Assembly (NCBI GenBank): GCA_050013255.1
Contig: JBEKFP010000003.1
Location: forward strand, 1 to 64,000
Source of the DNA: Candidatus Bathyarchaeia archaeon
GTDB lineage: Archaea; Thermoproteota; Bathyarchaeia; 40CM-2-53-6
Direction: 5' to 3'
Length of the DNA stretch: 64,000 nt
Under the pieces are notes generated by a model that was not told the origin of the DNA, made no database searches, and saw nothing but the letters and a program-made list of their open reading frames with translations. Shown in pieces: positions 28,267 to 47,695 of the stretch (its first letter is position 1; each line of letters starts with the position of its first letter). The position numbers and the translations under genes were made by a program.

Positions 28267-28364
28267 GGGCCGGTAGTTCAGCCTGGTTAGAAGACTAACG
28301 GTCTGACCTGAACGTTGCCCTTACACGGCAAAGGTCGCCGGTTCAAATCCGGTCCGGCCCACCA
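28267..28364 (+). tRNA. tRNA-Val(TAC) with a 20-nt intron at position 22/23 (28291-28310) and encoded CCA
   Basis: Acceptor stem GGGCCGG/CCGGCCC-ACCA, anticodon arm TTGCC-CTTACAC-GGCAA, T-arm GCCGG-TTCAAAT-CCGGT; the intron forms a BHB-like motif (GGTT/GACC helix, AGA and TGA bulges, AGAC/GTCT stem). Confidence 0.93.
28335..28364 (+). repeat. attL (tRNA-side copy): TCGCCGGTTCAAATCCGGTCCGGCCCACCA
   Basis: Identical to 41754-41783. Confidence 0.95.
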
Positions 28365-41729: not shown

Positions 41730-41783
41730 ATGACCGAAAATAATTCTGGAAAATCGCCGGTTCAAATCCGGTCCGGCCCACCA
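41730..41783 (+). other. int(N): 5' fragment of the integrase gene (MTENNSGK-SPVQIRSGPP) running into attR
   Basis: ATG 41730 is in frame with the 30-bp att core and, after circularisation, with TTTGACGAACCCGTG at 28365 (the integrase frame). Confidence 0.7.
41754..41783 (+). repeat. attR: copy of the tRNA-Val 3' 30 bp
   Basis: Identical to 28335-28364. Confidence 0.95.
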
Positions 41784-41788
41784 CTAAA

Positions 41789-43525
41789 CTACTCGGGCGG
41801 AATTTCTGAGAAAATCTGTGCATAGTCAACTTGTTTCTTTCGTGGTCCCCACTTGTAGTAGGTGTAGATCGCTGCTCCGATCAGGACGAATAGAAGATTG
41901 AATCCTAAGGCTAGCCAGTTGTAATAACCTGGAGCTAGCATATTGTCGTCAAAGATCGAGGTAAGGACCTCCCACCCGATGACCAAATTAGCCACGAGAC
42001 CCGCGAGGCCAATTGCTGCAACCCCAAGTTTCCCGCCTGGTTTGAAATATGCACTATCATAGAAGCGCCGTTGTCTGAACGGGAAGAGTAGGACTGCAAA
42101 CGAAAAGAGGCTGAGAAAAATCACAGTTAGAAGGTCTACGTAGGTGACGCCATACGAAAAGAAGGCGTCCATGATAGAACCTATGAGCCCGCCTGGGTTC
42201 CAACTGCCGCCAAGGGCAGCGACGCAAACTCCTCCACAACCTAACCCTGCTAATCCGCCAAGAATCGCGACGAGGACGACTGCGACAAAGGGAACGTGGA
42301 ATCTGTTAAGCTTGGCGAAAGTCTCAGGGAGGACTCTGTCGAATGACATGGCGAAAATCAGTCTTGAACCGGCCAACATCAATGCTGGAATTTCGTTAGC
42401 CGCCAACAGTAAGGGAAATAGGAACAAGATGACATTGAACGAGCCTAGTCCCAAGCCTTGAGCACTCATCATGGCCAATATTTGAACAAACATCCGGATT
42501 GGAGGAAGATGCGCCTGTGTGAGGCTCGTCGAAAATGTGAGGAAAGAGTAGGCTCCAAGGAAGCTCCACCTATCACCGTTGGGCAATATCGTTTGCCCTA
42601 CCGATGCAGCGGCGTCAGCTGAGATCCACGCCACGCCTACGAGAACCACGATAGCGACGAGCGCGCCGATTATTAGAACCTTAGGGAGATTCCTCTTAGG
42701 ATCCTTCACTTCTCCTAGAACAAATGTGGTTGAGGCGACTGCACCCCAGACAAGGAAAAAGCCAAAGTAAGACCAGACTGCCCAAATGAAACTGGCTGAA
42801 ACCGCTGTCCAATAGTCTCCGACGTTTGCTGAGTCAAGCCCCTGAGCGAGAGCAGCTTTTACGTATGTGTCTGCGGTCACTCCGGGTACTCCTTGTGTCT
42901 GCGCCCACATTGAAATTCCTCGCTCTAGCACGGCAGGGTTCATTATTGTGATGGCGAACAAACATAGAACGTAAGCAGTAATTATGACAGAAACCCAGAA
43001 GAGTACTTGCATCAAATACCCCGATACTCTCGTGCCAAACGCCGAGATCACTGCAAAAACGACTATGAGTATTAATCCGCCGACGGTTGGGTCGACGTCG
43101 TTAAGAATCGGACTTGCCGGGAAATAGAAATGCTGAGCGAGGCTCACGGCAATTGCGCCTAAATAGAAAGAAATCGTTAGGAATACAAGCCAACCCGCGA
43201 TGAAGCCCATGAATGGGTTGATAATCCTTGAAATCGCAAGATATCCTCCGCCAGATCGAGGCATTGCGCTACCTAAGATCGAATACCCAACCACCATTGA
43301 TAAGGCCAGAATTCCCACTATGATGAGGGCCATCACGGAAGGTGGAATTCCAGCGAACCATAAGTTCTCAGGCAAGGGGATGTTGCCCGTAGCAGAGAAG
43401 CCTCTCGCGAACGGCCAGAAGGCCCAACCCGTAACTGCGAGAATAATTACGACTGCAGTTAACGGACCAATTTCTCTAACTAGTCCCGTAGTTTCTCTTA
43501 CAAACGACTTCTTTCCATCAAGCAA
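41789..43525 (-). CDS. APC-family amino acid permease
   Basis: FVRETTGLVRE, AMPRSGGGY, GEVKDP, SRLIFAMSFDR, FSEIPPE. Confidence 0.9.
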   Translation of the reverse strand: MLDGKKSFVRETTGLVREIGPLTAVVIILAVTGWAFWPFARGFSATGNIPLPENLWFAGIPPSVMALIIVGILALSMVVGYSILGSAMPRSGGGYLAISRIINPFMGFIAGWLVFLTISFYLGAIAVSLAQHFYFPASPILNDVDPTVGGLILIVVFAVISAFGTRVSGYLMQVLFWVSVIITAYVLCLFAITIMNPAVLERGISMWAQTQGVPGVTADTYVKAALAQGLDSANVGDYWTAVSASFIWAVWSYFGFFLVWGAVASTTFVLGEVKDPKRNLPKVLIIGALVAIVVLVGVAWISADAAASVGQTILPNGDRWSFLGAYSFLTFSTSLTQAHLPPIRMFVQILAMMSAQGLGLGSFNVILFLFPLLLAANEIPALMLAGSRLIFAMSFDRVLPETFAKLNRFHVPFVAVVLVAILGGLAGLGCGGVCVAALGGSWNPGGLIGSIMDAFFSYGVTYVDLLTVIFLSLFSFAVLLFPFRQRRFYDSAYFKPGGKLGVAAIGLAGLVANLVIGWEVLTSIFDDNMLAPGYYNWLALGFNLLFVLIGAAIYTYYKWGPRKKQVDYAQIFSEIPPE

Positions 43526-43661: not shown

Positions 43662-44588
43662 GTGATGTCGAGACTGAACCGACGAAATAAGTGCACGTGT
43701 CTGATATTCCTCTTTGTCCTTAGCGTGTTGTTCGTTCCTACCCTGGTACACGGCACTAGGACTACACAGCCTTTCGAAGCGAGAGTCTTGGGCAATCCAA
43801 TGCACCAATCCGTCCCACAACAGGCAGACCCGGTTCAGGTACTCCATACCTTTGAAGTCCAACTCAACGCCCACAACGTCAATGCTGCTCTTGCACTTTT
43901 CACTGACAATGCGGTTGTTTACGATCCGACAACCATCTCCTGTTACGGCGGAACAGGGTCCTCTTGTGAACCCGGGAATATCATCATCTCCTATACTTCC
44001 AAGACGCAGATTCGAGGCTGGCTCCAATATCTCGCGCAGGTGGATATTGAAGTAAAAGAGGCCGGAGTCCCCCAAATCGCAGGAAGCAATGTGACTTGGA
44101 CTTGGCAGGTTTCCAACAACGGATACCGTACCCTGAACATCGCTCCGCTTGTGGGTGCCGGTGAAGCCATCCTTCAGGGTAACTTGATCAAGTACTTCAG
44201 CTTTCGACTTAGCGCAGATTCTATAGGAAAACTTACAGCCGCACTCGCGGCCTCCAGTCGGTCTCCATACTCCGTCGCTGGTGTGAGTATTGCGTTCAGT
44301 CTTGTTGCTCTCGGCATGGTTTTCCCCGGGGTAGCGGTGTATTATGTTTCGAGAGTCAAGCGACTCTTTGCTAGTGTGCCGAAGCTTGACAAACCTTGGA
44401 TATTGTTGGGCGCGGGCGTAGGGGTCTTATTTGTTTCAGTGCTGCTCGTGGCCTTGAGAGAAGTCGCCGCAATCTCGACAAGTGTTGCAGATCCACTCTT
44501 TGATGTGATATTGGCAGTCTGCGCTTTCTTTGTAATGTCGGCAATGATACTTATGAAACGGGTTATGATCAGTGAGCCCGATGAATAG
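43662..44588 (+). CDS. Membrane sensor candidate: signal peptide, SnoaL/NTF2-like domain, 3-TM domain
   Basis: DPVQVL.TF...LNAHNVNAALALFTDNAVV...K.QIRGWL SnoaL pattern; three C-terminal TM helices. Confidence 0.75.
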   Translation: MMSRLNRRNKCTCLIFLFVLSVLFVPTLVHGTRTTQPFEARVLGNPMHQSVPQQADPVQVLHTFEVQLNAHNVNAALALFTDNAVVYDPTTISCYGGTGSSCEPGNIIISYTSKTQIRGWLQYLAQVDIEVKEAGVPQIAGSNVTWTWQVSNNGYRTLNIAPLVGAGEAILQGNLIKYFSFRLSADSIGKLTAALAASSRSPYSVAGVSIAFSLVALGMVFPGVAVYYVSRVKRLFASVPKLDKPWILLGAGVGVLFVSVLLVALREVAAISTSVADPLFDVILAVCAFFVMSAMILMKRVMISEPDE

Positions 44589-44889
44589 CCCACTTCTATT
44601 CGCCATAGCTGCTATCGGGCTCGTCTGCTCGGCGGTCGCGACATATTATGTCATCCGCGTGAAAAGCGCCTTCGCTGGTCTCCCGCGCCTTGAAAGGCCT
44701 TGGCTCCTGCTTGGGCTTGGGGTCGCGTCTTTGTTTGTTGCGGCTTCGACGATTCCGATGGGCGAACTATCACTTTCTGTGGGAATCCTACATTTTATTC
44801 AGATCGCGGCTGTGGTTTCGGCTGCTTTCTTCATCTTGACTGCGATGGTGACGATGAAGCAGGCCTGGACAATTAGGGAGAGCGACTAG
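44581..44889 (+). CDS. 3-TM protein paralogous to the C-terminal domain of 43662-44588
   Basis: YYVIRVKSAFAGLPRLERPWLLLGLGV vs YYVSRVKRLFASVPKLDKPWILLGAGV. Confidence 0.8.
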   Translation: MNSPLLFAIAAIGLVCSAVATYYVIRVKSAFAGLPRLERPWLLLGLGVASLFVAASTIPMGELSLSVGILHFIQIAAVVSAAFFILTAMVTMKQAWTIRESD

Positions 44890-44890
44890 C

Positions 44891-46111
44891 ATGCAAGCTA
44901 CCGTCCCAGGTTTCAAGATGCAGATTCCAGGCTTAGAGGACCGCATCTTCCCGCCTGGAACTATCGTGCTACTGACGGCACGTCCTGGAACAGGAAAATC
45001 AGCCTTCGCCAAACAGTTCTGCCTAGAAGGATTGAAGAGGAGTGAGCGAGTAGTTGCAGCTTTGACTGACATTACAGCAGATAGCTTCCGCAAGAAGATC
45101 GGCGTCGAAACATCAAATCTAGACGTACTTGACTTCCTACTCGAGAAGCCAAACGGAGTTAATGAGATCTCAATCAAGATGCACCAACTAATATCGAAGA
45201 CGCCCGGCCGACAGGTTCGACTGATTTTCGATTCACTGTCAACACTCGGCACGATGTTCAACCCGGAGTTGCTCTCACCTTGGCTCCTAGATCAACGTGC
45301 AAAGTTGTCGAAGACCTCCGCCATGGTATTGGCGTTGGTCATTTACGCAACTGGCATCAACCCACCAGCTGTCACCCGAAGCCTCCACACATTCGCTGAT
45401 GTCGTCCTAGAGATGAAGACCGATGAGACGAAAGAGGAGCCCGAGAGGCAATTCAGGGTCCTCAAAGCTAGGGACATCAGCCACAGCTCTAGGTGGGTGC
45501 CTTTCAAGATTACTGATTCGGGAATCGAGTTTAACGCTGTGCCTGCCAACTTAGACCAGTTGCTGCTCAACGTAGACCAACGAATCTCTGAACGTGACCG
45601 AGTGTTGGCCACGGTTATGTTCGTAGACATTGTTGGATCAACAGAAAGGGCAACGCAGCTTGGTGATCGCCAATGGCAGGGCATTCTAAGAGGCTACTTT
45701 GGCTTGTTGCGCAAGGAGCTCAACCAATTTCGAGGTCGAGAGATCAGTACCACGGGGGATGGCATGCTCGCGATTTTCGATCGGCCTGAGAGTGCGGTTC
45801 GATGTGCCTGCGCAGCTAGAAACGCAGTTCGTTCCTTAGGCCTCGAAGTGCGCGTCGGCCTCCACACTGGAGAAGTGCAGCTTGCAGAAGGCAACATCGG
45901 AGGGATAGGCGTCCACATCGGCGCCAGGGTCGCCTCGCAGGCGAGTCCCGGCGAAGTATTAGTGTCCAGCACCGTCAAGGACTTAGTTTCAGGATCAGGC
46001 ATCGTATTCGATGATCGCGGTTTGCGAGCACTGAAGGGTGTTTCGGAGGAATGGCACTTATTCGCAGTTGTGTCCGATGAAACTCGGAAAGATGACACTG
46101 ACGCCCGCTGA
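44891..46111 (+). CDS. KaiC/RAD55-like ATPase fused to a class III adenylate/guanylate cyclase
   Basis: N-terminal: IPGLE, ARPGTGKS, LIFDSLS, ADVVLEM, RVLKAR, FKITDSGI. C-terminal: FVDIVGST, TGDG, RVGLHTGE, VHIGARV, LKGV. Confidence 0.9.
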   Translation: MQATVPGFKMQIPGLEDRIFPPGTIVLLTARPGTGKSAFAKQFCLEGLKRSERVVAALTDITADSFRKKIGVETSNLDVLDFLLEKPNGVNEISIKMHQLISKTPGRQVRLIFDSLSTLGTMFNPELLSPWLLDQRAKLSKTSAMVLALVIYATGINPPAVTRSLHTFADVVLEMKTDETKEEPERQFRVLKARDISHSSRWVPFKITDSGIEFNAVPANLDQLLLNVDQRISERDRVLATVMFVDIVGSTERATQLGDRQWQGILRGYFGLLRKELNQFRGREISTTGDGMLAIFDRPESAVRCACAARNAVRSLGLEVRVGLHTGEVQLAEGNIGGIGVHIGARVASQASPGEVLVSSTVKDLVSGSGIVFDDRGLRALKGVSEEWHLFAVVSDETRKDDTDAR

Positions 46112-46157: not shown

Positions 46158-46712
46158 CTAAGTTTCTTTGGCATATCGTTCGGAGAATTTGATGAAGACT
46201 GAATTGTTGGTCACTTCAATTTTAGGCTCAGTTCCGAGAGCCGTGCGTATGCCTGCTTCGTAGACTCGTTTCAAATGATTCGAATATTTGGAGCCCAGCC
46301 CATGTTGCAAGGTTATGCTGTAGTTGCCACCGATTCTCTCGACCTCGCACTGGGTAGTGCCAACATATTTGGAGAGTCTTTCACAAAAGGCGCAGACAGT
46401 TTCTGCATCTATCCGTTTATGCCAGAACCTCACCATCTCAAGGAATGTCGACGGGGCCTCTTCTGTCGCGGCCAAATATGTTTGCTCATCCATCGCCTCT
46501 ATCATTCGCTCGTAGTTGTTTCGTGGTATCGTGACGAAACCAAACTTTCGTGTGAAACGATCCCATTCAGCGTATTTGGTTAAGATCGATACAACTAGTG
46601 CGCTCACCGTTCGGTTCTCAGCGTTCGCATCTCTTTGTAGGAGTGCGTTCAACTCTTTGGGAATACGTACGTTTCTCAGTACGGTCTGGGTTTTTCGGTC
46701 GGCCAAACTCAA
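46158..46712 (-). CDS. RHH transcription regulator with C-terminal V4R/HNOX-like ligand domain
   Basis: RNVRIPKEL..LL..DA..ENRTVSALVVSILTKYAEWD; C-terminal QHGLGSKYS, typical of this TACK family. Confidence 0.7.
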   Translation of the reverse strand: MSLADRKTQTVLRNVRIPKELNALLQRDANAENRTVSALVVSILTKYAEWDRFTRKFGFVTIPRNNYERMIEAMDEQTYLAATEEAPSTFLEMVRFWHKRIDAETVCAFCERLSKYVGTTQCEVERIGGNYSITLQHGLGSKYSNHLKRVYEAGIRTALGTEPKIEVTNNSVFIKFSERYAKET

Positions 46713-46718
46713 TCATTA

Positions 46719-46756
46719 TGTTTCACTCTGTTTTACTTTGTAACATTTGTGGTTAC
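46719..46756. promoter_or_regulatory. Operator candidates: TGTTT(C/T)ACT direct repeat and GTAAC-N7-GTTAC inverted repeat
   Basis: Located in the divergent gap between the RHH regulator and the pilin-like gene. Confidence 0.35.
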
Positions 46757-46810
46757 GTTGTGAGCCTATCACCTAAGTTCTCCCACTTAGAAATACGGGT
46801 TCGAAGACTC

Positions 46811-47263
46811 TTGAAAACTAAACTCGTCTTGGCCAGTATTCTTGTCGTTGTTATCGTAGTTGTCGCTGGTGTGTGGTTAATCTCTGGTCACTCCGGGGCA
46901 TCTACTAACGAGAAGATTCAGATTCCTTCTGGAGGGATAGTTGTCAATACCATAGCGGATCCGGCCGCTGGCGCAGGCATGGTGACTTGGACTACAGCCA
47001 CTCTAACTGTAGATAACATAGGATCGGTGCCTGTTACTATCTCAAGAATCTACGTGCAGGGCGCCGCTTACAGTTACAGTTCGACCGCGGCTCCCGGCAC
47101 ATTCTCCGCAGCCTCTAACCAAATTCAACCCGGACAAAGCCTAACCTTCACGATAACGGACTCCTCGCCAACTCCACTCACTATCGCCAACGAGAATGCG
47201 TGGAATTTCAAAGCAGTTACTTCCAACGGCACTGAAGCAAGCACCGCATATAGTTGGGGGTAA
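46811..47263 (+). CDS. Archaeal pilin-like secreted protein
   Basis: Hydrophobic N-terminus, LTVDNIGSVPVTISRIYV, IQPGQS, FKAVTSNG; TTG 46811 preferred. Confidence 0.6.
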   Translation: MKTKLVLASILVVVIVVVAGVWLISGHSGASTNEKIQIPSGGIVVNTIADPAAGAGMVTWTTATLTVDNIGSVPVTISRIYVQGAAYSYSSTAAPGTFSAASNQIQPGQSLTFTITDSSPTPLTIANENAWNFKAVTSNGTEASTAYSWG

Positions 47264-47592: not shown

Positions 47593-47609
47593 TCCGGTCC
47601 GGCTCACCA
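47593..47609 (+). repeat. Degenerate third att copy (16/17 match to the tRNA-Val 3' end)
   Basis: TCCGGTCCGGCTCACCA; similarity to the attR region continues downstream (CTGAACTAGTCGGGCGGAATTTC vs CTAAACTACTCGGGCGGAATTTC). Confidence 0.75.
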
Positions 47610-47614
47610 CTGAA

Positions 47615-47695
47615 CTAGTCGGGCGGAATTTCCGACGAGCTCCGTGTGTAGCTATTTTGTCTTCCCGAAGGACCTCATCTAGAATATACGTAGAT
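47615..47695 (-). pseudogene. 3' remnant of an APC permease
   Basis: IYVYSR*GPSGRQNSYTRSSEIPPD* vs IYTYYKWGPRKKQVDYAQIFSEIPPE* of 41789-43525; the Trp codon has become TGA. Confidence 0.75.

Follow-up and report, generated by a model that had tools for sequence, protein, structure and literature searches.

Four adjacent genes in the genome of an uncultured peat archaeon look like a complete and undescribed signaling route, in which a catalytically plausible class III cyclase, the sole one in a complete genome, lies between a membrane sensor and a DNA-binding protein. We put at about even the chance that these genes form a lineage-restricted module leading from membrane to DNA, consisting of a receptor, an ATP switch, a cyclase, and a transcription factor. 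They were found in a stretch of 64,000 nucleotides from Candidatus Bathyarchaeia archaeon (contig JBEKFP010000003.1), called the window here. The host genome is archaeal, judged by the presence of TBP genes, as the assembly yielded no SSU rRNA; in a control search, TBP was found in archaea only. The features of the locus are as follows:

41767..41834, no strand: left copy of a 68-nt direct repeat, in which a tRNA-end-like sequence is combined with the 3' end of the permease
41789..43525, minus strand: APC-family amino-acid permease, 578 aa (PF13520 AA_permease_2, E 3.6e-21), divergent from g1
43662..44588, plus strand: g1, membrane sensor protein, 308 aa
43830-44210, plus strand: modeled NTF2/SnoaL-fold ectodomain of g1 (residues 57-183)
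44265-44570, plus strand: 3-TM anchor of g1 (residues 202-303)
44581..44889, plus strand: g2, stand-alone 3-TM protein, 102 aa counted from ATG
44891..46111, plus strand: g3, KaiC-like/cyclase fusion, 406 aa
44891..45544, plus strand: N-terminal KaiC/RecA-like P-loop ATPase domain of g3 (residues 1-218)
45593..46084, plus strand: C-terminal class III cyclase homology domain (CHD) of g3, Rv1900c/LipJ type (residues 235-398)
46158..46712, minus strand: RHH-185, ribbon-helix-helix (RHH) protein, 184 aa, convergent with g3
46729..46770, minus strand: non-coding element conserved immediately upstream of RHH-185, GATAGGCTCACAASGTA ... GTTACAAAGTAAARCA
47593..47660, no strand: right, decayed copy of the same 68-nt repeat

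As an earlier, sequence-only reading of the window had proposed, g1, g2, and g3 are tightly coupled: g1 and g2 overlap by 8 bp, g2 and g3 are separated by 1 bp, and the open reading frames lie at the positions that reading assigned to them. The same reading took the system to end with g3 and thereby left out RHH-185 (46158-46712), which converges with g3 across a 46-bp gap and is the best-supported downstream partner. Both downstream members of the trio have conserved N termini, with the MNSP start of g2 kept in 30 homologs and the motif MQxxVxGFKxQIPGLE kept in homologs of g3.

The sequence-only reading had staked itself on the trio being conserved together elsewhere, and since g1-g2-g3 recurs in ∼20 metagenomic loci, it stands on that count. 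Gene order together with a convergent RHH-185 was preserved at 58 to 82% g3 identity in loci L001, L002, L032/33, and L034 and on the P0023 contig. The KaiC-like gene directly followed a 3-TM gene in all 12 loci examined, including the most distant members (L111 and L112). The unit that is conserved is nevertheless smaller than the trio, with relatives that dispense with the ectodomain, with the second 3-TM gene, or with the cyclase; the invariant core is a 3-TM protein plus a KaiC-like ATPase. The 3-TM family is rare, forming only 21 clusters among 1.84 billion protein representatives, and was detected in 3 of the 401 genomes of the class, all from one genus and the very three that hold the KaiC-like ortholog. 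An additional open reading frame of 221 aa (46598-47263) was considered as a module part and rejected, as its homolog occurred in just one other locus and was non-adjacent there.

Could these genes be neighbors by common ancestry, or because a mobile islet carries them, without cooperating at all? All module loci come from one narrow clade, so inheritance rather than selection may account for part of the synteny, and only 3 of the 23 species in the genus have the module, a patchy distribution. Moreover, the two copies of the 68-nt repeat, 78% identical and 5826 bp apart, bracket a block comprising the permease, g1, g2, g3, RHH-185, and the 221-aa frame, and this block adjoins an integrated element. 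Against such an account, every locus has start and stop codons that overlap or almost touch, co-occurrence of the 3-TM and KaiC-like genes is perfect, and the block is kept down to 58% identity in g3 and 38 to 40% in g1 while the flanking genes vary. RHH-185 orthologs are also tied to cyclic-nucleotide genes in two unrelated contexts. We consider it very improbable that adjacency is all that these genes share.

The sensor end of the proposed module is formed by g1 and g2. By sequence profile, g1 matched SnoaL_2 (PF12680) only below threshold (16 bits against a cut-off of 27; E 0.018), and its 72 homologs belong to no Pfam family, a precomputed NTF2-like/SnoaL_2 match existing for only 2 of them. 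The AlphaFold2 model has pLDDT of 88 to 96 across most of residues 57-183, with a dip in the loop in the 90s-100s. Foldseek matched this model to NTF2-like, ketosteroid-isomerase, and SnoaL structures with probability 1.0, at TM scores (by target) of 0.84 for 3f40, 0.85 for 5tgn, and 0.76 to 0.80 for ketosteroid isomerases. The ectodomain is thus modeled as a cone-shaped alpha+beta NTF2 fold. Flanking it in the model are an N-terminal hydrophobic helix (residues 8-28), which serves there as a signal/anchor helix, and three C-terminal helices (202-235, 243-269, and 273-303). The K/R-rich TM1-TM2 loop and tail predict that the NTF2 domain is extracellular. These results bear out the earlier description of g1 as an exported SnoaL/NTF2-like domain on a 3-TM anchor. 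Residues invariant among the g1 homologs include D88, W120, and W146, the loop YYVSRVK..F...P....PW, and the MKR tail.

The product of g2 was likewise correctly recognized as a paralog of this anchor, aligning with g1 residues 212-307 at 44% identity over 99 residues (E 2e-20); g1 and g2 hold the only copies of the 3-TM domain in the genome. Across 62 g2 homologs, the invariant residues fall in the predicted cytoplasmic loop (F31, R36, L37, P40, and W41) and tail (M92, K93, W96, and T97), and those of the g1 anchor lie on the same predicted cytoplasmic face. Together, g1 and g2 may constitute a heteromeric receptor, and its putative ligand would be small and hydrophobic.

The permease is a conserved neighbor of the module, and a functional tie between them is putative. 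A homolog of 45 to 90% identity stands beside g1 in L001, L032, L102, L114, L123, L130, L137, L150, and L154 and on the P0023/P0027 contigs, and a rearranged one occurs in L034. Upstream regions of g1 align poorly among loci save for a TATA-like box. The permease enters into a non-signaling interpretation that we regard as improbable, namely, that g1 and g2 (six TM segments in total) combine with the RecA-fold ATPase into a small membrane machine driven by ATP. In this machine, the NTF2 domain would serve as a substrate-binding lid, and the cyclase would be a later regulatory appendage. Such a machine might act in transport, in lipid or envelope handling, or in control of the adjacent permease, a conserved divergent neighbor in most loci. 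NTF2-fold proteins often bind lipids and other hydrophobic compounds, and there are loci in which the core pair is kept although cyclase domain and RHH-185 are missing; both points would suit a machine of this kind. However, no permease adjoins the genes in the two outgroup loci (L013 and L014), and L014 encodes only a 111-aa 3-TM protein without ectodomain, which leaves scant room for a substrate path. Fusion to a signaling enzyme and linkage to a DNA-binding protein point instead to signaling, and we know of no KaiC-family ATPase that drives transport.

Profile searches upheld the description of g3 as a single KaiC-like ATPase fused to a class III cyclase (PF06745 KaiC, 63.8 bits against a cut-off of 26.6; PF00211 Guanylate_cyc, 43.4 bits against a cut-off of 21.9). 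In the N-terminal domain, Walker A (GTGKS, residues 33-37) and Walker B (LIFD, residues 111-114) are present, and neither motif is disrupted in any of the 31 family members with a KaiC-like domain. Among solved structures, the closest chains are those of two archaeal single-domain proteins, PH0284 and PH0186, with KaiC next. Where KaiC has its catalytic Glu-Glu pair, g3 has an invariant T59-D60, and the domain may bind ATP without hydrolyzing it. Scores were far under every NCBIfam KaiC/ArlH equivalog cut-off. Circadian KaiC proper was rejected as an identity (NF006799, 47.7 bits against 408; TIGR02655, 13.3 bits against 546) given the single domain and T59-D60 of g3, as was the archaellum protein ArlH/FlaH (NF052589, 28.5 bits against a cut-off of 215), archaellum genes being absent nearby. 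Complex prediction for g3 residues 1-222 with g2 gave no answer, its score of 0.00 against a mark of 0.32 being uninformative either way.

Within the 2.46-Mb genome, PF00211 matched nothing but the C-terminal domain of g3, which aligned over 164 residues with the CHD of Rv1900c (1YBT; 155 bits, E 1.9e-44), including the motifs FxDIVGST, GDG, and VHIGAR. Its key residues are D246, S286, D290, N335, H342, and R346. The metal-binding aspartates D246 (in FVDIVGST) and D290 (in GDG) align with FTDIVGST and GDG of 1YBT. Of the transition-state Asn-Arg pair, R346 is present and the Asn position is occupied by H342, aligning with H402 of Rv1900c. Sinha and colleagues reportedly found in 2005 that a His at this position is dispensable in Rv1900c. 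The substrate-specifying pair, S286/N335, is neither the Lys/Asp of adenylyl cyclases nor of the Glu/Cys type of guanylyl cyclases, and therefore the product of g3 is not assignable from sequence. The bifunctional lipase/adenylate cyclase LipJ (NF058673) was rejected as an identity: g3 reached 192.7 bits against a cut-off of 800, matched profile positions 289-448 only, and has no alpha/beta-hydrolase domain.

Catalysis has not been kept uniformly in this family. One or both metal-binding aspartates were lost in 12 of the 24 fusion proteins, in at least four separate events, and the cyclase domain is wholly absent in at least two nested lineages; in one of these (L102), a search downstream of the KaiC-only gene found no remnant of it. 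The family is therefore held together by something other than cyclase catalysis, and the cyclase is an add-on to the 3-TM/KaiC-like core. All 10 sequences in the clade of the window retain both aspartates, the Arg, and the His seen in Rv1900c, and the g3 cyclase domain there is catalytically plausible. The earlier proposal that the system controls cyclic-nucleotide synthesis consequently survives as possible only for the subclade of the window, which retains the Asp and Arg residues, and fails for the degenerate fusions. H342, R346, and ∼25 other CHD positions are invariant across the family. CHD identity was 0.66 among degenerate and 0.76 among active forms, with similar ratios of divergence relative to the KaiC domain (1.48 and 1.39, respectively).

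The case for RHH-185 as the downstream partner rests on conservation and genomic context. This protein is 71 to 88% identical in all fusion loci and is better conserved than the trio. Its orthologs were beside cyclic-nucleotide genes in 44 of 49 loci, compared with 0 of 31 for paralog loci. Among the 49, 11 abut the fusion and 33 lie in a cluster of a 441-aa protein, a cNMP-binding protein, RHH-185, and a metallo-beta-lactamase, in which the gene for the stand-alone cNMP-binding protein is directly upstream of the RHH-185 ortholog and a cyclase gene is within reach in 15 of the 33. Six of the 11 metagenomic fusion loci, all found independently via RHH-185, extend through g2/g1 to the permease; the other 5 end within the cyclase domain. 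No RHH-185 was found within 680 bp downstream in L102, the nested relative without a cyclase domain. The cNMP-binding domain PF00027 is absent from the whole host genome (estimated 100% complete), as measured by a search that in a control found it in 10 of 14 reference genomes. Since this genome has one class III cyclase and no PF00027, the neighboring RHH-185 is the obvious candidate receiver.

Structure comparison placed the N terminus of RHH-185 in the RHH fold as modeled, with the RHH domain of PutA matched over 41 residues (Z 5.4, rmsd 1.0 Å) and TacA1, CopA, and MazE also among the matches; sequence profiles were only sub-threshold (RHH_5, E 0.024; NikA, E 0.0075; AvtR, E 0.032). The C-terminal alpha/beta domain matched VirS (Z 7.9), Bet3 (7.6), DmpR (7.4), and PoxR (6.9), then H-NOX (5.6 to 6.3) and the V4R protein MJ1460 (5.3), each over ∼115 to 130 residues, Z values below 8 being common for models without clear relatives. 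Resemblance to the V4R, H-NOX, and TRAPP-Bet3 sensor folds is accordingly offered as a lead from the model. Structure comparison recognized no known cNMP-binding fold in RHH-185, which has no PF00027 domain; Foldseek matches in the PDB were limited to designed proteins, BcsD, and DesK, the last poorly aligned, and a protein atlas held only unnamed archaeal clusters. Upstream of the gene, the non-coding element has 28 invariant columns across six loci, including L047 from another genus. Each of its halves occurs once only in the window, and a search elsewhere in the window, including the g1 promoter, did not find it. This conserved element is probably the promoter together with an operator.

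RHH-185 was also retained beside degenerate cyclase domains (L002, L032, L034, L130, and L154), a pattern easier to reconcile with direct contact between the proteins than with a diffusible messenger. A messenger-free partner switch, in which a membrane-tethered g3 scaffold holds or releases RHH-185, the CHD acts as a nucleotide-binding or dimerization module, and any cyclase activity in the clade of the window is residual or secondary, is in our estimate rather unlikely. It would account for the repeated loss of metal-binding aspartates while the CHD stays well conserved, for this retention of RHH-185, and for a genome that lacks a cNMP-binding domain and an ortholog of the 441-aa cluster protein and has the cluster metallo-beta-lactamase only as a 33% paralog. 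It does not readily explain why the Asp pair, Arg, and His are all kept in the clade of the window, which points to catalytic selection there. Furthermore, elsewhere RHH-185 orthologs accompany a genuine cNMP-binding protein and catalytic-looking cyclases, and so the family is tied to the messenger itself; its members may be candidate new cyclic-nucleotide-linked regulators.

In the membrane-to-DNA module that we favor, the NTF2-fold pocket domain of g1 would be exposed outside the cell, and the 3-TM anchor of g1 and the paralogous g2 would make up the membrane part. Their cytoplasmic loop (F..LPRLERPW) and tail (MK(Q/R)(A/V)W/M..E.D) would hold the KaiC-like domain of g3, such that ligand-driven changes in the membrane part could alter its ATP binding, hydrolysis, or oligomerization. 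Class III cyclases must dimerize to be active, so that pairing of the fused Rv1900c-type domains, and with it the synthesis of cAMP or another 3',5'-cNMP, would be decided by the state of the KaiC-like domain. RHH-185 would then read the output, with its C-terminal sensor-like domain as the nucleotide-binding site or through direct contact with the cyclase domain, and change transcription. The fuller version of this proposal, a self-contained archaeal cyclic-nucleotide pathway from extracellular ligand to DNA with an ATP-gated KaiC-like switch that couples a split membrane receptor to the cyclase, and with an RHH plus V4R/H-NOX-like reader, a novel type of transcription factor without a classical cNMP-binding domain, is possible and is put forward tentatively.

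cAMP has been reported in few archaea, and the CYTH proteins, the usual annotated archaeal cyclases, were found not to make it (PMC8233210). If the pathway reading is true, the module would reveal an archaeal enzyme that makes cyclic nucleotides as well as an archaeal protein that receives them, neither of which has been established so far (PMC8233210). The module is small, each link is testable, and it could reveal how KaiC-like "hub" ATPases relay signals. Repeated decay of catalytic residues in a domain that is kept provides natural mutants with which enzymatic and scaffolding roles could be told apart. The module has a narrow direct biological reach, since it is confined to one genus-level clade of uncultured peat/soil Bathyarchaeia.

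It has been proposed that single-domain archaeal KaiC-like ATPases, including ArlH/FlaH and PH0284/PH0186, act as hubs of signal transduction (Makarova, Galperin and Koonin 2017, as presented in PMC5847659). Like these, g3 carries Walker A and B in one RecA/KaiC-fold domain and is beside or fused to signaling parts; unlike KaiC itself, it carries Thr-Asp in place of Glu-Glu. Narrow, lineage-specific fusions are typical of such ATPases, KaiC-REC and KaiC-HalOD1 among them (PMC5847659). In the literature covered, which took in Makarova 2017 by way of PMC5847659, we found no description of a cyclase as the output of a KaiC-like fusion, nor of the 3-TM family. The domain order of g3 is also seen in L050 from a sister genus, an inactive KaiC domain followed by a class III cyclase domain; it differs from g3 in lacking Walker A, in having a canonical Lys/Asp/Asn/Arg cyclase domain (34.5% identical to that of g3), and in having no 3-TM neighbors.

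With Rv1900c (LipJ) of M. tuberculosis (PDB 1YBT and 1YBU), g3 shares both aspartates, the Arg, and the His replacing the usual catalytic Asn, and in each protein an unrelated regulatory domain precedes the cyclase domain. The Rv1900c CHD has been solved as a functional dimer, and homodimers are required for activity (PMC4174876). The regulatory domain is a KaiC-like P-loop domain in g3 and an alpha/beta-hydrolase in Rv1900c, the specificity pair is Ser/Asn in g3 whereas the first position is Asn in Rv1900c, and g3 is archaeal and in an operon with membrane-protein genes. Like CRP/FNR-type factors, RHH-185 is proposed to turn a cyclic-nucleotide signal into transcription, but it would do so with an RHH domain and putative ligand binding instead of PF00027. 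The likeness to receptor/G-protein/cyclase signaling is an analogy only; the sequence-only reading had drawn a loose parallel to receptor/NTPase/cyclase signaling. As in Rv1625c/Cya and the CHASE- and HAMP-linked bacterial class III cyclases, an extracytoplasmic or membrane sensor is proposed here to control dimerization of a cytoplasmic cyclase. However, sensor and enzyme are separate polypeptides in this module, a KaiC-like ATP-binding domain would take the place of the HAMP or helical transducer, and the receptor would be split into two paralogous 3-TM chains.

The window's three coupled genes, g1, g2 and g3 (the trio), lie on the forward strand where the sequence-only reading had placed three same-strand ORFs. 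They sit between a permease gene and a convergent gene for a ribbon-helix-helix (RHH) protein, RHH-185:

41767-41834: 68-nt direct repeat, first copy
41789-43525, - strand: APC-family permease
43662-44588, + strand: g1, 308-aa ORF, sensor with three-transmembrane (3-TM) anchor
44581-44889, + strand: g2, 102 aa counted from ATG, 3-TM paralog; 8 bp shared with g1
44891-46111, + strand: g3, 406 aa, KaiC-like/cyclase fusion; 1-bp gap after g2
46158-46712, - strand: RHH-185, 184 aa
46729-46770: 42-nt non-coding element upstream of RHH-185
47593-47660: 68-nt direct repeat, second copy

The starts chosen for g2 and g3 are supported by homolog alignments, which keep MNSP and MQxxVxGFKxQIPGLE there, respectively. 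The host genome (2.46 Mb in three contigs, estimated 100% complete) is archaeal, since it contains TBP genes, which a control search detected in archaea only.

A Pfam profile gave only a sub-threshold SnoaL_2 match for g1. In an AlphaFold2 model built with 33 homologs as input, a confident core (residues 57-183) matched NTF2-like, ketosteroid-isomerase and SnoaL structures (TM score up to 0.85, probability 1.0 in structure comparison). The model places an N-terminal hydrophobic helix before this core and three membrane helices after it, and the fold match bears out the proposed SnoaL/NTF2-like domain on a 3-TM anchor. The K/R-rich TM1-TM2 loop and tail would put the NTF2 domain on the extracellular side. 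Of the g1 cysteines, C102 is nearly invariant in the homolog alignment and a second is kept in most rows, which would fit an extracellular disulfide. The stand-alone paralogy of g2 to the g1 anchor, also proposed earlier, held at 44% identity (E 2e-20). Invariant residues of both proteins are concentrated in a loop predicted to be cytoplasmic (F..LPRLERPW) and in the tail at the C terminus (MK(Q/R)(A/V)W/M...E.D).

As the sequence-only reading had it, g3 joins a single KaiC-like domain (PF06745, 63.8 bits; motifs GTGKS and LIFD) to a class III cyclase domain (PF00211, 43.4 bits). The catalytic Glu-Glu pair of KaiC aligns with an invariant T59-D60 in g3, and by sequence the KaiC-like domain may work more as a switch that binds ATP than as an ATPase. 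For the cyclase domain, the closest match is Rv1900c/LipJ, a class III adenylyl cyclase of Mycobacterium tuberculosis (155 bits to 1YBT, the structure of its cyclase domain); the two have in common the pair of metal-binding Asp residues, the Arg and an unusual His at the Asn position. The specificity pair of g3 is Ser286/Asn335, and the cyclase product therefore cannot be named from sequence.

The fusion architecture was found in ∼24 metagenomic proteins at 58 to 82% identity. The sequence-only reading depended on the trio being kept together elsewhere, and it does recur, with g1-g2-g3 in identical order on every contig long enough to judge. Among fusion loci reached via the RHH gene, this order was observed in 6 of 11, the remaining five stopping inside the cyclase domain; genes flanking the block vary from locus to locus. 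Two genomes of the same genus hold simpler versions of the module: at L013, a stand-alone KaiC-like gene comes right after the gene for a g1-like protein, and at L014 one follows the gene for a 111-aa 3-TM protein. A profile search detected the 3-TM domain in 3 of the 401 genomes of the class, and the same three genomes also hold the KaiC-like ortholog. Searched exhaustively, 1.84 billion protein representatives yielded only 21 clusters of the 3-TM family. Its most distant members (L111 and L112) are directly followed by a KaiC-like ortholog (59 to 65% identity), and linkage of the two genes was seen in 12 of 12 loci. The conserved core is thus smaller than the trio, consisting of the 3-TM gene and the KaiC-like gene.

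Two loci showed further arrangements. After the ATPase gene of L013, a 151-aa ORF that matches no Pfam family (2167-2622) stands at the place of the cyclase domain in fusion loci. Metagenomic locus L034 (1430-6328) carries, in order, the full trio, a permease, a shortened second g3 copy (280 aa, without the Walker A region and with a degenerate cyclase domain) and RHH-185, an arrangement that is a local duplication or rearrangement.

The key-residue table showed Walker A and B intact in all family sequences that extend over the KaiC-like domain. Of the cyclase Asp residues, both are present in the window's clade and four other sequences, and at least one is gone in 12 of 24 fusions. In a tree of the KaiC-like domain, KaiC-only forms (lacking the cyclase domain) fall outside the fusion clade, and four others are nested within the window's clade; therefore, the cyclase domain was lost at least twice. 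Degenerate cyclase forms require at least four separate changes on the same tree. At one nested KaiC-only locus, no cyclase remnant was found in 680 bp downstream. The core carries the cyclase domain as an unstable addition. Among reference genomes, the nearest relatives of this domain are LipJ-like proteins of bacteria, and acquisition from bacteria would fit this affinity. Degenerate cyclase domains are still well conserved overall, which suggests that the domain may have a second, non-catalytic role.

RHH-185 is 71 to 88% identical across fusion loci, exceeding the conservation of the trio. Its gene context differs for close orthologs in a sister genus (L047, 5828-11653; L048, 3433-16972; L049, 688-6851), where the cluster comprises:

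a 441-aa protein with no assigned function
a stand-alone cNMP-binding protein of 145 aa (PF00027, E 1e-22; at 7388-7825 in L047)
the RHH-185 ortholog
a metallo-beta-lactamase-fold protein (weak Apyc1-like match)
nearby, cyclase-TPR and cyclase-AAA(STAND)-TPR genes, in many cases alongside another cNMP-binding gene

The same cluster occurs in many peat and sediment metagenomes (L115-L161). The window's genome lacks a PF00027 domain and an ortholog of the 441-aa protein, and the metallo-beta-lactamase has only a 33% paralog there. We surveyed 80 metagenome loci via RHH-185, comprising orthologs at ≥70% identity (n = 49) and paralogs at 33 to 39% (n = 31). Eleven of the 49 orthologs adjoin a KaiC-like/cyclase fusion, 33 lie within a cNMP-binding cluster (15 of these with a cyclase gene in reach), and five showed no such gene, three of them on contigs of <3 kb. 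Fusion or cNMP-cluster genes accompanied 0 of 31 paralogs.

The RHH-185 model (pLDDT 81) has an RHH fold at its N terminus, and residues 56-183 gave Z scores of 5.3 to 7.9 against the V4R/DmpR, VirS, TRAPP-Bet3 and H-NOX sensor folds; the model thus offers a lead, not proof, that the C-terminal domain may be of sensor type. The upstream element at 46729-46770, with TTACA-type repeats flanking a AAAGTAAA box, is nearly invariant between genera, the sister-genus locus included, whereas the proteins are only ∼75% identical. RHH-185 belongs to a large paralogous family, in which ∼20 paralogs over ∼18 genomes have exactly one in-frame TAG within the match (e.g., G000:C2:238241-238768); these could reflect a split gene, read-through or recoding.

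Our preferred reading of the window's module, to which we give about an even chance, is a pathway from receptor through ATP switch and cyclase to transcription factor. Retention of RHH-185 at loci with a degenerate cyclase domain is better accounted for by the main rival, a partner switch without a messenger: here the cyclase-fold domain would hold RHH-185 directly, a possibility we consider rather doubtful. The messenger pathway better accounts for all catalytic residues being kept in the window's clade, and for a true cNMP-binding protein accompanying RHH-185 orthologs elsewhere. A transport-type role for the module is unlikely and mere synteny of its genes highly improbable, both ranking below the pathway and the partner switch.

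The two copies of the 68-nt repeat (78% identical, 5826 bp apart) combine tRNA-3'-end-like sequence with the permease gene's 3' end. They enclose the trio and RHH-185 along with the permease and a 221-aa ORF, and adjoin an element integrated at a tRNA. These features and the module's patchy distribution within the genus fit accessory, exchangeable DNA, and the repeats beside the element suggest that recombination brought in or exchanged the block they bracket. ARAGORN detected a tRNA-like gene of 98 nt, its anticodon unassignable, at the left end of the element (28267-28364); it is probably an intron-containing or integration-disrupted tRNA.

Each part of the module can be assigned to an established superfamily (class III cyclases, KaiC-like ATPases, the NTF2 fold and RHH proteins). 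A literature search found no published description of the KaiC-like/cyclase fusion, the 3-TM partner family or RHH-185 with its cyclic-nucleotide context. In a sister genus, L050 (4369-5682, - strand) encodes a 437-aa protein joining a KaiC-like domain to a canonical class III cyclase in which the Lys, Asp, Asn and Arg are all present. Unlike g3, its KaiC-like domain lacks Walker A (inactive), and it has no 3-TM neighbors. This is a second, probably independent fusion in Bathyarchaeia, and KaiC-like/cyclase fusion therefore recurs in archaea.
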